From Stenotrophomonas humi (GTDB lineage Bacteria > Pseudomonadota > Gammaproteobacteria > Xanthomonadales > Xanthomonadaceae), in the NCBI RefSeq assembly GCF_001431415.1, contig NZ_LDJI01000015.1, positions 28,618 to 60,617 on the forward strand: a DNA stretch of 32,000 nucleotides, written 5' to 3'. Under the pieces are notes generated by a model that was given only the letters and a program-made list of their open reading frames with translations, had not been told where the DNA came from and made no database searches. Positions 10,801 through 26,801 of the stretch are shown here, in pieces (the first letter of the stretch is position 1; the number at the start of each line of letters is the position of its first letter). Position numbers and translations under genes: made by a program.

Positions 10801-11178
10801 CTATGGCATGGGAATATGCAATTTCGCATAATGTATAAACGGTGCAGCTGAAACACCGGTTTCCGATGCCTGTACGTGCGCAGGGGAGGCGAGGCCGACT
10901 CCTATCACTAGGGCCATCGCGGTAGCGGCCAATTTGCGCCATACAGCCTTTTCTTTCTGATCCGTGGCGCGTGCTTCGCCCACGATGCCCAACACCTTTG
11001 CCAGCGGTACGCCGGTAATACCGGCAATCGTCGCGCACGTGATCGTGTCGGGGAATTTATTGCTGTTTCGCCAGTTGCTCACGGACTGTCGGGATACGCC
11101 CAGCTTGCGGGAAAGGTCGCTGTCAGACGTTGCACCGGACGCCTGCTTAGCCAGGTCAAGAAGCTCTGTGAAGTCCAT
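10801..11178 (-). CDS. Phage A HTH repressor/immunity regulator with C-terminal hydrophobic tail
   Basis: Starts MDFTELLDLAKQASGATSDSDLSRKLGVSRQSVSNWRNSNKFPD (Xre/Cro-like HTH). It has the same architecture as the prophage B protein at 26505..26801. Its last codons (..FIHYAKLHIPMP*) are encoded by the dif-like site itself. Confidence 0.65.
   Translation of the reverse strand: MDFTELLDLAKQASGATSDSDLSRKLGVSRQSVSNWRNSNKFPDTITCATIAGITGVPLAKVLGIVGEARATDQKEKAVWRKLAATAMALVIGVGLASPAHVQASETGVSAAPFIHYAKLHIPMP
10821..10848 (+). other. dif-like Xer site, phage A attP-type junction: ATTTCGCATAA-TGTATA-AACGGTGCAGC
   Basis: It has a perfect XerC-type arm plus the TGTATA central region, identical to the site at 18332. 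The XerD-side arm is degenerate. It lies inside the 3' end of the repressor gene. Confidence 0.7.
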
Positions 11179-11180
11179 CG

Positions 11181-11247
11181 TGTCCACCCTGTGTTGACTA
11201 CTGTCCACCCCCAGTGTACTTTCCGCACTGTCCACCGATAGTGGACA
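11181..11247. promoter_or_regulatory. Putative phage A operator cluster: TGTCCAC x3 plus an inverted GTGGACA
   Basis: TGTCCAC occurs at 11181, 11202 and 11229. The palindrome TGTCCACcgataGTGGACA spans 11229-11247. The cluster lies directly upstream of the repressor start (11178). Confidence 0.4.
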
Positions 11248-11261
11248 CCCGCCCCGGCCTC

Positions 11262-11289
11262 CCCTAGAGCCGGGTGCGGGCTTCTAGGG
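11262..11289 (-). terminator. Conserved hairpin CCCTAGAGCC-GGGTGCG-GGCTTCTAGGG downstream of the cargo gene
   Basis: 10-bp stem with one bulge. The same hairpin occurs in inverted orientation at 26395-26422 in prophage B, in the same relative position. There is no T-tract, so its function (terminator or other) is uncertain. Confidence 0.35.
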
Positions 11290-11383
11290 TGTAGGGGAGG
11301 GGGCAGTGGCCGTGACGGACAGAGATCGCAAGACCATCATCCATCCCGAGCTCGTTAGGCGTAGTGCCGCGGGCCGGAACGAT

Positions 11384-12229
11384 CTACTTCTTTCTGATCA
11401 GTTGCGTCTCAAACAACCTTTGCTCCTCGTTCAATGCTTCGATACGCGTATCAATCCGCGACATTACGGCAGTGACGGTTGCTTCAAGGCTTGTAGCCTT
11501 CTCTTTGAGTCCTTTCAGACCACCATCGATAGCAGCATCGTAGATATCGATCTTCGCGCGATCGTCGATTTTGGTCGTCGCGCTCTCTTCGTCGTACTTG
11601 TAAAAAAAATCGGGACCTTTGAGGTCATCGATGTGGCTTTGCGCGGACTGCTGGTACGCCTGCAGCTCGACCTCAAGCCTCTGGATTTGCTCCAAGTCAC
11701 TCATTGCAAGCTCGGACTTGAACTCATCGCTCCATTGAACCAGCTTGATTCTCGACAGAGTGAGTTCGATGCGAGTACGCATTGCGCGGCGTCCCAACAT
11801 GAAGGCGTTCGGGATGGCCTCTGGCAACTCAACTCCTTTACTACGCATCTCTATGCGCCGATCGACCTGCCTGAGTACCTGGGCTGGATAGGTGCCAATA
11901 CTCGCCTTGTTTCGAATAATCGCCAAACGGGCGCAACTACCGTCGACCTTTGCGCGGGATTGCCGAACGCTTTCCGCCCGTCGCGCAACCTCAGACAATC
12001 GCGAAAACTGAACGGCTTTCCAGCTGATTATGCCTGCAGCGATACCGGCCCCGATCGTTCCGAACGCCGCAAGCCAAGCAGCTCTCTTCTCAGAGTTAGA
12101 GTCGGAAACGAACGATACGTCCAGGTTGAAAATGATCACTGCGCTGATCATCCCGATCGCATACACAAATGCAGTGGCTACTACAACTGTGGTAGTGGGA
12201 ATCCACATGCCGGATTGTTTTACATCCAT
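11384..12229 (-). CDS. Phage A cargo protein: two N-terminal TM helices plus ~190-aa helical/coiled-coil domain
   Basis: Start MDVKQSGMW at 12229, in frame within ORF 11384..12592, with AAAGGGGGCGGT upstream. TM1 is TTTVVVATAFVYAIGMISAVIIF and TM2 is AAWLAAFGTIGAGIAAGIISW, followed by a K/E/Q-rich helical region. GC is visibly lower than in the neighbours. The antisense ORF 11306..12274 has junk-like composition. Confidence 0.6.
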   Translation of the reverse strand: MDVKQSGMWIPTTTVVVATAFVYAIGMISAVIIFNLDVSFVSDSNSEKRAAWLAAFGTIGAGIAAGIISWKAVQFSRLSEVARRAESVRQSRAKVDGSCARLAIIRNKASIGTYPAQVLRQVDRRIEMRSKGVELPEAIPNAFMLGRRAMRTRIELTLSRIKLVQWSDEFKSELAMSDLEQIQRLEVELQAYQQSAQSHIDDLKGPDFFYKYDEESATTKIDDRAKIDIYDAAIDGGLKGLKEKATSLEATVTAVMSRIDTRIEALNEEQRLFETQLIRKK

Positions 12230-12270
12230 ACCGCCCCCTTTGGCGTCCGTTCCATTGGGGGGATTCTGGC

Positions 12271-12438
12271 ATGACCAGCATCCTCCTTGCTCTCTGCGGT
12301 GTGTGCGGCTTCTGCCTCGGTCGCGGATCCGTCCTGCTGATTTCATGGATCCTTGACCGCCGCGATTCGCGTGTTGATTCCGCGTACCGCGCTGCTCGCC
12401 TCGTTGCCGTCTCCAGGGCGGAGGTGAGTCGTGATTGA
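12271..12438 (+). CDS. 55-aa small membrane protein conserved in both prophages
   Basis: Manual translation gives MTSILLALCGVCGFCLGRGSVLLISWILDRRDSRVDSAYRAARLVAVSRAEVSRD*. A near-identical 55-codon ORF lies at 25428..25595 (-). It is below the ORF-track length cut-off. Confidence 0.55.
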   Translation: MTSILLALCGVCGFCLGRGSVLLISWILDRRDSRVDSAYRAARLVAVSRAEVSRD

Positions 12439-12521
12439 GGTTGCCGCGTTCCTGCTGTGCGGCATCTTCTTTACGGTCGTGCCGCTCGCGTTGTTCGGTC
12501 TGCTTGGAAAGGGGAAGCGCG

Positions 12522-25359: not shown

Positions 25360-25427
25360 GGCTGCGACCACGGAGATAGACAAACAGGGAGACGACCCAC
25401 GCAACAACTGCAAAACCGAAAAGGAAA

Positions 25428-25595
25428 TCAAGCACGACCCACCTCCGCCCTGGACACGGCAACGAGGCGAGCAGCGCGGTACGCGGAATCAACACGCGAA
25501 TCGCGGCGGTCAAGGATCCATGAAATCAGCAGGACGGATCCGCGACCGAGGCAGAAGCCGCACACACCGCAGAGAGCAAGGAGGATGCTGGTCAT
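25428..25595 (-). CDS. 55-aa small membrane protein conserved in both prophages
   Basis: MTSILLALCGVCGFCLGRGSVLLISWILDRRDSRVDSAYRAARLVAVSRAEVGRA*. It starts at 25595 within ORF 25428..25739 and has the same length as 12271..12438. Confidence 0.55.
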   Translation of the reverse strand: MTSILLALCGVCGFCLGRGSVLLISWILDRRDSRVDSAYRAARLVAVSRAEVGRA

Positions 25596-25636
25596 GCCAG
25601 AATCCCCCGAATGGAATGAGCGCCTAGGGGGGCGAG

Positions 25637-26344
25637 ATGAGCAATGGAGACCACAAAGTCTCGACGATCGAGATATGGAGTGCCGGTGTATTGCTGTTCT
25701 GCGCAGGCGCGATGTTTGGAGGCTGGGCCACCGGAACATTCAGCACGAAGGGCAATGCAGCTGATTGGGTTGCAGCACTCGCAGCTGCAGTGGCGGCTGC
25801 GGGCGCTTGGGTGATCGGCTTTATGGCTTGGCGCATATCGCAGCGCTCCCAAGAACACAATGAGTATGTTCAACGAGAGGACAGGGAGCGGACTGAGAGA
25901 CGCGATCGAGCGCTTATTAGGAATCTGAGATATCAGCTCAGAAACATAGTTGCGGGTGCACAAGTCATTCTTCAGAAGGAAAGCATTAGCACGCTCCCTA
26001 GGTCGGCCGTACTTAGAACGGTCGGCACATTCGCCGGCAACTTCCTTCACACAGATCGAATGATTGACGTACTTCCGCTGCTGAGACCAAAACAGGTGAC
26101 CTCGTTGGAGCGGATTCAATCTCTTGTCTTCGTCACCACTGCGGCCAGGAGAAGCTTTGAGGAGAGCGCCAATAGTCGGGACCTCACTCAACCGTTGAAC
26201 GAAGTCGACATGAAGTACTTCGGCAACCTCATCACTCAGCTGACTGAGCTCAAAGCTACTGCGGAAGCGTTTTTGGCACTGCTCGCGGATGAGGACGCAG
26301 ATGGTCAGAACGAGAAGGCGAAGACCGCTCCGCGTCCGGGCTAG
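25637..26344 (+). CDS. Phage B cargo protein: two N-terminal TM helices plus ~165-aa helical domain
   Basis: TM1 is IWSAGVLLFCAGAMFGGWATGTF and TM2 is WVAALAAAVAAAGAWVIGFMAW, followed by a charged helical domain. It has the same locus, the same orientation relative to Rep and the same architecture as 11384..12229, with no obvious sequence similarity. Confidence 0.55.
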   Translation: MSNGDHKVSTIEIWSAGVLLFCAGAMFGGWATGTFSTKGNAADWVAALAAAVAAAGAWVIGFMAWRISQRSQEHNEYVQREDRERTERRDRALIRNLRYQLRNIVAGAQVILQKESISTLPRSAVLRTVGTFAGNFLHTDRMIDVLPLLRPKQVTSLERIQSLVFVTTAARRSFEESANSRDLTQPLNEVDMKYFGNLITQLTELKATAEAFLALLADEDADGQNEKAKTAPRPG

Positions 26345-26394
26345 GAACATTGCTCGCAACAGTAATTGACCCATCTCGCAGCCCTCCCCTAGCG

Positions 26395-26422
26395 CCCTAG
26401 AAGCCCGCATCCGGCTCTAGGG
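26395..26422 (+). terminator. Conserved hairpin CCCTAGAAGCC-CGCATCC-GGCTCTAGGG downstream of the cargo gene
   Basis: Reverse complement of the prophage A hairpin at 11262-11289. There is no T-tract. Confidence 0.35.
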
Positions 26423-26440
26423 AGACCGGGACAGGTGTTG

Positions 26441-26504
26441 AACGACATTCGACACTGGGCGGATGTAAACTGATGCTCGACACTCCTGTCAAGAGACATT
26501 CAAC
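26441..26504. promoter_or_regulatory. Putative phage B operator repeats (TCGACACT x2, GACATTC x2)
   Basis: TTCGACACT at 26448 and CTCGACACT at 26476. GACATTC at 26444 and 26495. They lie directly upstream of the repressor ATG (26505). The motifs differ from the TGTCCAC repeats of phage A. Confidence 0.3.
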
Positions 26505-26801
26505 ATGAGCCGAATTAATCACCTCATTGACGCAGCCCAACAGGCATGCGGATTGACCTCGGACAACCAACTTGCAGGCAAGCTGAAAGTGTCGCGGAGC
26601 GCCGTTTCTGTCTGGCGGAAGGGCGGAAAAATTACCGATGAGCACTTGGCGGCTCTGGTGGAATTGTCCAAAGTCGACCCGTCTGAAGCTATCAAAGTCC
26701 GGGCCGAACAGGCTTCTTCAAAGGCCGAAATTCGCCTTTGGAATCATATGCTTACCCGCCTTGCTTCGGCTGCTATGCTCGGCGTTATGTATATTATGTA
26801 A
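26505..26801 (+). CDS. Phage B HTH repressor/immunity regulator
   Basis: MSRINHLIDAAQQACGLTSDNQLAGKLKVSRSAVSVWRKGGKITDEHL (Xre-like HTH) with a hydrophobic tail. The last codons ATG TAT ATT ATG TAA are the dif central region plus the XerD arm. Confidence 0.6.
   Translation: MSRINHLIDAAQQACGLTSDNQLAGKLKVSRSAVSVWRKGGKITDEHLAALVELSKVDPSEAIKVRAEQASSKAEIRLWNHMLTRLASAAMLGVMYIM

Follow-up and report, generated by a model that had tools for sequence, protein, structure and literature searches.

What becomes of a regulatory gene when the phage that carries it enters the chromosome through the 3' part of that very gene? The question is raised by a stretch of 32,000 nucleotides from Stenotrophomonas humi (RefSeq assembly GCF_001431415.1, contig NZ_LDJI01000015.1, positions 28,618 to 60,617), called here the window and numbered from its first letter. 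Linked to dif in the window is a stack of filamentous prophages that depend on Xer (integrative mobile elements exploiting Xer, or IMEXs); reading rightwards, these are a decayed remnant, A', then phage A, then phage B. The two phages are related, lie in opposite orientations, and each carries at its outer edge a gene encoding a regulator with a helix-turn-helix (HTH) domain, the coding sequence of which runs into a Xer site. The initial annotation of this DNA took the two genes to be repressors and proposed that integration rewrites their C-termini. The pertinent features are given below, where att denotes an attachment site, attP that of the circular phage, and C-type or D-type an attP with its XerC or its XerD arm, respectively, downstream of the regulator.

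9753-10820, minus strand: remnant A' of an older A-like prophage (contents by tblastn and Pfam)
10311-10721, minus strand: intact DUF3653 gene of remnant A' (Pfam)
10718-10820, minus strand: post-att tail-coding stretch of remnant A'
10821-10848, plus strand: S1, left junction of phage A; XerC arm ATTTCGCATAA, TGTATA, degenerate XerD-side arm of phage A AACGGTGCAGC
11178-10801, minus strand: CI/XRE-type HTH regulator of phage A, integrated form, 125 amino acids from its ATG, with a GTG at 11235
10838-18348, plus strand: prophage A, an inovirus with a C-type attP, 7511 bp (Pfam, PHROGs; limits set by S1 and S2)
17890-18243, minus strand: DUF3653/PSB15-like gene of phage A
18240-18331, minus strand: post-att tail-coding stretch of phage A, homologous to the tails of SMA9, PSH1, L026 and L030-L033
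18332-18359, plus strand: S2, A/B junction; XerC arm ATTTCGCATAA, TGTATA, phage B's own XerD arm TTATGTCAACG
18349-26793, minus strand: prophage B, an inovirus with a D-type (Cf2-like) attP, 8445 bp, inverted relative to phage A
18354-18419, plus strand: tail-coding stretch of phage B
18432-18725, plus strand: DUF3653 gene of phage B
26505-26801, plus strand: HTH regulator of phage B, integrated form, 98 amino acids, ending ..LGVMYIM
26777-26804, plus strand: S3, right junction of phage B; degenerate XerC-side arm of phage B GCTCGGCGTTA, TGTATA, XerD arm TTATGTAAAAC
26805-26850, plus strand: flank right of S3

All three Xer-type sites of the window share the central hexamer TGTATA, and dinucleotide-preserving shuffles of the window lead one to expect only 0.00 to 0.07 site matches. 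The geometry is that of an IMEX, with element edges that are hybrid dif-like sites built from 11-nucleotide arms and a common 6-bp central region. No Phage_integrase match appeared among the scanned open reading frames (ORFs) of the two phages, small ORFs not all having been scanned, and the sole integrase gene in the window (27697-28776) lies outside both. The structure of the sites, together with experiments on XacF1 (PMC4076744), on phiLf-UK/phiLf2 (bioRxiv 10.1101/2023.12.30.573655) and, reportedly, on Cf2 (Yeh 2020), points to integration of both phages by the host's XerC and XerD.

Where do the regulators end? In phage B, the TAA (26799-26801) lies within the XerD arm of S3, so that the stop codon comes from the junction, as had been claimed. 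If the ends of phage B are joined at the central region, the predicted episomal junction is GGCGTTA-TGTATA-TTATGTCAACG, and the frame runs on for exactly the 21 additional codons foreseen (through 18354-18419), giving a protein of 119 amino acids that ends ..MYIMSTKDRLWLCRFQHDAPSTRSA. The regulator of phage A reads through S1 and ends ..FIHYAKLHIPMP in DNA of the remnant; joining its ends (predicted junction ..GATAAGCAATTTCGCATAA-TGTATA-AACGGTG) gives 149 amino acids ending ..FIHYAKLLISRLSWIWLWITSHLPSRPPKDQGEIEA, the very alternative tail that had been predicted. The statement that both genes terminate inside the Xer site thus holds for phage B but not for phage A, whose stop codon falls 18 nucleotides beyond the XerC arm. 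The reason that the tail of phage A is cut short lies next door: the adjoining remnant is built for a different reading of att. The A' tail has its open frame in C0 (YTLCEIAYSHAIARLSWIWLW..EIEA), att is read by phage A in C2 (the frames are listed below), and the hybrid, being out of frame, stops at a TAG after HIPMP.

These reconstructions could be compared with forms found in nature. Isolated relatives carry the long uninterrupted ORF in their replicative form (RF) or virion genomes. In L026, a 7.8-kb contig of IMG/VR in which the core and flank of S1 are found intact, as in phage A, the ORF continues to ..SAAPFIHYAKWLMGRLRWVWLWISSHLPSRPPKDSGEIEA, and its stop overlaps the start of a DUF3653 gene (ATGA); four circularly permuted contigs that contain only inovirus sequence (L030-L033) have the same 4-nucleotide overlap between the two genes. 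In the clade of phage B, the left junctions of six loci (attL in L018-L023) combine a host XerC arm with a phage XerD arm lacking a stop (TTATGTTAAAT or TTATGTCAAAG), and the right junctions (attR in L013-L024, of the same type as S3) combine a phage XerC-like arm with TTATGTAAA, which bears the stop. A 7.3-kb inovirus-only contig, L034, is the intact-attP form of the prophage in L019, L020 and L022: its junction is exactly the left half of attR joined to the right half of attL, TTA stands in place of the prophage's TAA, and a DUF3653 gene lies directly downstream. L034 was reached through a protein search. Pattern scans of IMG/VR and the JGI metagenomes did not find an RF-type junction of the B clade, the three junctions from IMG/VR all being of the integrated type. 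In these relatives, then, the intact-attP form does not have the stop codon of the prophage, and both they and the reconstructions bear out the earlier contention that episomal and integrated forms encode different C-termini and that the neighbor sets the tail.

The arrangement is widespread. Among 11 isolated relatives, with genomes deposited as circular phage genomes, the dif core falls within the corresponding HTH ORF, 25 to 35 codons 5' of its stop, in 10: XacF1, Cf1c, Cf2, Xf109, phiXv2, phiLf2, SMA6, SMA9, PSH1 and phiSHP2. The attP is C-type in XacF1, Cf1c, phiXv2, Xf109, SMA9 and PSH1, as in phage A, and D-type in Cf2, phiSHP2, SMA6 and phiLf2, as in phage B; the two orientations have been described by Yeh (bioRxiv 10.1101/2023.12.30.573655). 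All three frames across the core are in use among these phages. GenBank places attP within the HTH gene of Cf2, Xf109 and phiXv2 and a Xer recombination site within ORF10 of phiLf2. A whole-database search with the phage A protein gave 434 matches, and 110 of the best 120 have an att-encoded peptide near the C-terminus, distributed over the following classes of orientation and frame:

C0: YTLCE, n = 26
C1: YIMR, n = 40
C2: IHYAK, n = 30
D1: YIM, n = 7
D0: CILC, n = 6
D2: VYYV, n = 1

Overlap of att and ORF that recurs in 10 of 11 isolated relatives and in 110 of 120 homologues is not a matter of chance. Beyond the att peptide, the homologues diverge completely, as would be expected of reading through into whatever DNA adjoins, apart from one recurrent tail, R-L-x-W-x-W-L-W-I-x-S-x-L-P-S..KDEIAA followed by the stop. 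The tail of homologue P0020 is exactly the one predicted for phage A, and that of L026 is almost the same. Closest to the phage B protein are the clusters P0001-P0013, of which 11 of 13 are 98 amino acids long with the MYIM end; P0008, at 102 amino acids, has the same end.

What kind of protein is it whose end is exchanged? The label of repressor rests on homology (Phage_CI_repr, HTH_3, DUF3693). The phage A protein scores above the Pfam thresholds for Phage_CI_repr (34 bits) and DUF3693 (35.9 bits), and the phage B protein falls just below them for both families. In tblastn comparisons, HTH proteins of SMA6, Cf2, Xf109 and XacF1/Cf1c share 37-41% identity with the phage B protein (E from 1e-8 to 1e-15), and the phage A protein matches only those of SMA9, PSH1 and Xf109 (about 30-34%, E from 2e-5 to 3e-3); the closest homologues of the regulators belong to Stenotrophomonas, Xanthomonas and Pseudoxanthomonas. 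As modelled by AlphaFold2, P0021, a close homologue of the phage A protein, has a five-helix HTH domain in residues 1-70 (predicted local distance difference test, pLDDT, 83-88), a helix at 74-96 that coincides with the hydrophobic segment, a disordered linker at 98-113, and a C-terminal helix at 115-135 that begins with the att-encoded peptide, the tail having a pLDDT of 50-63. Foldseek aligned the HTH domain with ImmR, TP901-1 CI and P22 c2 at a root-mean-square deviation of 2.2-2.6 Å and E values of only about 0.1, matches that are consistent with an HTH fold and do not prove it. The same region has been called Cf's primary determinant of immunity, and deletion of the 5' part of ORF12 delays integration of XacF1 and destabilizes the prophage (Ahmad et al. 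2017, PMC5666396).

The explanation that best accommodates these observations, and one that is probably correct, is that the regulator gene contains the attachment site within its 3' part, so that Xer integration would both swap the regulator's tail and detach the gene that follows. The att would lie past the HTH domain (of the CI/XRE type, DUF3693 family) and the hydrophobic helix, 20 to 35 codons before the stop, and that stop would overlap or abut the start of a DUF3653 (PSB15/XafT-like) gene. Recombination at the 6-bp central region would replace the last 21 to 31 codons by DNA from across the junction and, in the same act, carry the DUF3653 gene off to the opposite prophage end. Among B-type phages, a TAA would come into frame with the host-type XerD arm TTATGTAAA, producing a clean truncation at 98 amino acids. 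In A-type phages, the ORF would run on into the flank, and its end would vary with the neighbor. The anatomy, its conservation, and the natural existence of both forms can be read directly from the genomes. The truncated regulator presumably remains a working repressor, and loss of the tail or uncoupling of DUF3653 may tune lysogeny, assembly or excision. Integration state could in this way be coupled to immunity or the control of lysogeny, as the initial annotation surmised and as had already been raised for ORF12 of XacF1.

Perhaps, though, the swap has no consequence. In tightly packed genomes of 6 to 8 kb, where attP must adjoin DUF3653, the HTH domain and hydrophobic helix may be the whole functional unit and the rewritten tail a neutral by-product. 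This is a real possibility, one we hold to be somewhat less probable than not. It is what one would expect from post-att tails that are almost random over the 120 homologues from lysogens, from the tolerance of all three att frames, from the weak conservation and unequal lengths of the B-clade tails, and from the low confidence with which AlphaFold2 places the tail. It does not readily account for the finding of the tail R-L-x-W-x-W-L-W..KDEIAA behind four frame/orientation classes of att, with compensating indels that restore the frame, nor for a stop that is always on or beside the start of DUF3653.

The substitutions within the tail speak to the same matter. Nine A-type tails (A, A', L026, SMA9, PSH1 and L030-L033) read att in three frames and then share a single frame in the tail. 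The proportion of nonsynonymous differences (pN) is well below that of synonymous differences (pS) in three of the four closest pairs, which also tells against neutrality: 0.09 against 0.40 for A and A', 0.12 against 0.38 for A and L026, and 0.17 against 0.44 for SMA9 and PSH1, with ratios of 0.2 to 0.4. In the fourth close pair, L031 and L033, pN (0.22) is not well below pS (0.30), a ratio of 0.73. There is, then, moderate evidence for translation of the A-type tail, and for constraint on it, in the circular form.

Several observations weigh against a functional swap, or against parts of the explanation favored here. Summed over the A-type tails, pN/pS is just 0.65, over 21 codons, the last eight of which overlap with the start of the following gene and its ribosome-binding site. 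The B-clade tails, of 21 to 32 amino acids, are rich in arginine and weakly conserved. The tails in prophages are highly diverse, from which it follows that the tail is not needed for maintaining lysogeny and that its exchange may be neutral. Pattern scans of IMG/VR and the JGI metagenomes did not encounter the RF of the window's own phages. L034, a contig reported from two samples, differs from L019 by a 1-nucleotide deletion in a run of T (6580-6590 in L034, 10230-10241 in L019) that shifts the frame, so its own arm TTATGTTAAAT is read TGT TAA and the ORF is again of 98 amino acids. Finally, loss of PSB15, the DUF3653 protein of phiLf-UK, is without effect on integration, which speaks against DUF3653 acting there in the manner of XafT.

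Two B-clade contigs have, just past the XerD arm and within the tail-coding stretch, a hairpin-like motif, GGTGCCG-GAAA-CGGCACGAT (L021, at about 1410-1430; L018, at about 830-850). In phage B of the window the stem of the hairpin is lost and the encoded motif C-R-x-x-H-D is kept.

The detachment of DUF3653 did not figure in the initial annotation, and it may matter more than the tail swap. In the episomal form of phage A, the TGA of the regulator (18240-18242) would overlap the ATG of DUF3653 (18241-18243); in phage B, 12 nucleotides separate the regulator's tail from the DUF3653 gene on the same strand (18419 to 18432). The tails of the B clade always end 1 to 12 nucleotides before the DUF3653 start or overlap it. 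Once the phage integrates, the gene lies at the opposite end of the prophage and is parted from the regulator's promoter and from translational coupling. DUF3653 genes cluster beside dif in Xanthomonadales, and the DUF3653 domain of XafT, from Vibrio TLC-phi, activates XerD (PMC6744903). The DUF3653 protein of phiLf-UK, PSB15, attaches to the packaging signal; assembly requires it and integration does not (bioRxiv 10.1101/2024.03.19.585677).

One might therefore regard the change at the C-terminus as incidental and the broken operon as the true switch, with DUF3653 protein made from RF or tandem junctions and not from a single prophage. Known roles in assembly (PSB15) and in XerD activation (XafT) would give such a switch something to act upon, and the layout is as it would require: all intact-attP genomes have the 4-nucleotide ATGA overlap or a gap of 1 to 12 nucleotides between the two genes, and in the array the DUF3653 genes of A and B diverge from S2 with no regulator gene upstream. 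The integrated regulator of phage A precedes instead the intact DUF3653 gene of the remnant, with no terminator-like site found between them. Against this, internal promoters are possible (promoter and terminator scans at the three junctions gave nothing above shuffle expectation), and lysogens of related phages do release virions (PMC4076744). On the whole we consider it unlikely that the operon break is the entire story.

A bolder proposal, and a quite doubtful one, is that attP between the regulator and the coupled DUF3653 gene acts throughout the family as a sensor of integration, with the prophage's neighborhood setting immunity, virion production and excision. The circular form would make a two-helix regulator, perhaps associated with the membrane, together with a protein that serves packaging or activates Xer; a single prophage would make a truncated regulator and have DUF3653 silenced; and tandem or heterologous neighbors, such as remnant A', would restore expression of DUF3653 and give hybrid tails that depend on frame.

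That the S1 and S2 junctions and the hybrid ORF ends are artefacts of misjoined phage repeats is very improbable. A, A' and B do share segments of 86-96% identity, and an independent contig of this locus from Logan (L005) ends within the repeat. But L005 agrees with the window over the flanking host DNA and on into the remnant, each of the three junctions is a precise hybrid at the central region, and the layout with a C-type phage (or remnant) on the side of XerC and a D-type phage on that of XerD is found again in L018, L019 and L021/L023, which are independent assemblies.

How did the array arise? In C-type attPs the XerC arm is good and the XerD arm degenerate, and in D-type attPs the reverse holds, which implies that each integration leaves a complete site on the inner side of the phage. 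C-type phages would stack to the left of the working dif and D-type phages to the right, with the newest element nearest dif. The mirror-image layout of A and B is explained by their two opposite attP orientations, and the stacking geometry explains both the outer position of the older remnant and the fact that S2 alone, among the sites of the array, has two well-formed arms. S2 is presumably the working dif. The same layout is seen in L021/L023, and also in L018 and L019, there with decayed C-type tails.

The outer edges of the array may hold traces of earlier arrivals. To the left, 10371-10837 in the remnant is 91% identical to the right end of phage A (17893-18348). A full tandem copy of phage A left of S1 was considered and rejected, the phage-derived DNA there amounting to only about 1.1 kb. 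To the right, 26787-26850 (central region, XerD arm and about 47 nucleotides more) is 85% identical to the XerD-side flank of phage B (18342-18406), and attR flanks in other hosts are unrelated to it. The flank right of S3 may belong to a remnant of an older B-like phage or may be captured host flank, and the arm that supplies the stop may likewise stem from an older B-like remnant rather than from a pristine host dif. An exact-pattern scan of genome contigs for this flank gave one match, a chance one in Anaerostipes.

Both phages carry the standard inovirus set, as judged by Pfam and PHROGs (Rep_trans, single-stranded DNA-binding protein, coat-like, pIII-like and pVI-like proteins, and Zot). 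The remaining features of the window, those of phage A by Pfam/PHROGs, are:

1-9118: ordinary chromosomal genes, including an ECF (extracytoplasmic function) sigma factor with a ChrR-like protein, TspO, a histidine kinase, BenE and a GntR-aminotransferase
9753-9863, plus strand: C-terminal fragment of Zot in remnant A' (tblastn)
9918-10349, plus strand: ORF of remnant A'
12939-14102: phage A Rep_trans
14130-14417: phage A single-stranded DNA-binding protein
14643-14774: phage A coat-like protein
14836-16095: phage A pIII-like protein
16088-16372: phage A pVI-like protein
16369-17523: phage A Zot/pI
19402-20019, minus strand: phage B TraX
20016-21257, minus strand: phage B Zot
22074-23042, minus strand: phage B pIII-like protein
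23655-23948, minus strand: phage B single-stranded DNA-binding protein
23952-25127, minus strand: phage B Rep_trans
27697-28776: tyrosine integrase, right of S3
28930-30147, minus strand: PDDEXK-like protein, right of S3
30193-31902, minus strand: defence-type HerA ATPase (PADLOC HerA, E = 1e-144)

The Rep_trans modules of the two phages (12715-14114 and 23952-25351) have 86% nucleotide and 90% amino-acid identity, and a 207-nucleotide segment (12232-12438 and 25428-25634) is 96% identical, the remainder of the genomes having diverged. The shared modules indicate recent modular exchange between the co-resident prophages. A GC-rich segment of about 57 nucleotides (11245-11301 and 26382-26438, 88% identity) lies just 5' of both regulators in the divergent intergenic region and is a candidate operator, origin or packaging element. 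Phage B has, downstream of Zot, a gene of the acyltransferase-like TraX family (E = 7e-47), in the slot annotated 'TrbP' in Xf109 and SMA6; L026 holds a similar gene. The dif prophages of L019 and L020 are flanked, on either side, by KfrA-integrase modules similar to that right of S3. A megablast search of a phage collection with both prophages gave only a 33-nucleotide match in the replication gene, and hence no close nucleotide relatives.

What would all this mean? Should the tail swap or the uncoupling of DUF3653 have a phenotype, Xer-dependent filamentous phages, which have neither integrase nor excisionase, would possess a built-in means of telling an integrated genome from a free one, and this would explain why tandem or stacked dif prophages behave unlike single ones. 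To the arrangement described for XacF1 the window contributes two further members that are uncharacterised, one SMA9-like and one Cf2-like phage, and it is a clear case of a hybrid ORF end that depends on the neighbor.

That arrangement, and its implication, have been published for XacF1 and its relatives. The attP of XacF1 lies within ORF12, and integration splits ORF12 and may affect its function (Ahmad et al. 2014, PMC4076744; 2017, PMC5666396). In XacF1 and Cf1c (Coriovirus), ORF12 is the '18.2K' regulator, an HTH gene on the strand opposite to the structural genes, as in the phages of the window. Shared as well are the 15-bp dif core (TATACATTATGCGAA), which precedes the regulator's stop by about 30 codons, the overlap of that stop with the start of the downstream DUF3653 gene, and the splitting of the ORF by XerC/D integration at dif. 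Phage A has the orientation of XacF1 and Cf1c, but it reads the core as IHYAK rather than LYIMR, its tail is of the Trp-rich SMA9/PSH1 type rather than ..LLTLLC..HRKRTGQ, and nucleotide similarity is negligible.

The closest isolated relatives of the phage A regulator are those of the Stenotrophomonas phages SMA9 and PSH1, at about 30-34% identity overall. SMA9 reads att as IHYAK, as phage A does, and the tail of the two phages, ..W-x-W-L-x-L-W-L..KDEIAA and stop, is homologous to the episomal tail predicted for phage A and has the ATGA overlap with DUF3653. SMA9 and PSH1 are isolated phages, whereas the window holds an array.

The counterpart of phage B is Cf2 (Lophivirus; GenBank MK512531), with an attP inverted relative to that of XacF1, so oriented that the XerD arm lies downstream of the regulator, a core that, just as in phage B, is read Y-I-M-S, and a DUF3653 gene following. 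The phage arm is TTATGTCAAAG in Cf2 and TTATGTCAACG in phage B. The two differ in a segment of about 27 amino acids between the hydrophobic helix and att that phage B lacks, and in the post-att tail (21 amino acids in phage B and 31 in Cf2, with little similarity); the regulators are 41% identical. In 2020 Yeh reportedly characterized Cf2 as a case of 'XerD-dependent integration'.

XafT, the Xer activation factor of Vibrio TLC-phi (PMC6744903), likewise pairs an XRE HTH domain with DUF3653 in an element that integrates at dif. XafT is a single polypeptide, whereas phages A and B have two ORFs, with a stop codon and attP between the HTH and DUF3653 parts. In phiLf2 (L007, 551-1384) and Xf409 (L006, 1201-1971), the HTH ORF is in frame with the DUF3653 ORF (277 and 256 amino acids, respectively); phiLf2 retains an att core in the linker, and Xf409 has no recognizable core. 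These XafT-like fusions could be real or could be sequencing frameshifts. More distantly, in the int/sib retroregulation of phage lambda and in SSV1-type integrase genes split by their own attP, recombination at attP alters the context of a phage gene. There, episomal and integrated copies are expressed differently, but the recombinases and genes are others, without homology to those considered here, where the recombination system is the host's Xer and the gene resembles a repressor.

Measured against these systems, what appears not to have been laid out before is the family-wide census, the stop provided by a host-type XerD arm in the D1 class, the restoration of the tail frame, and the view of integration as splitting an operon. 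These additions are extensions of the arrangement known from XacF1, not a new kind of system.

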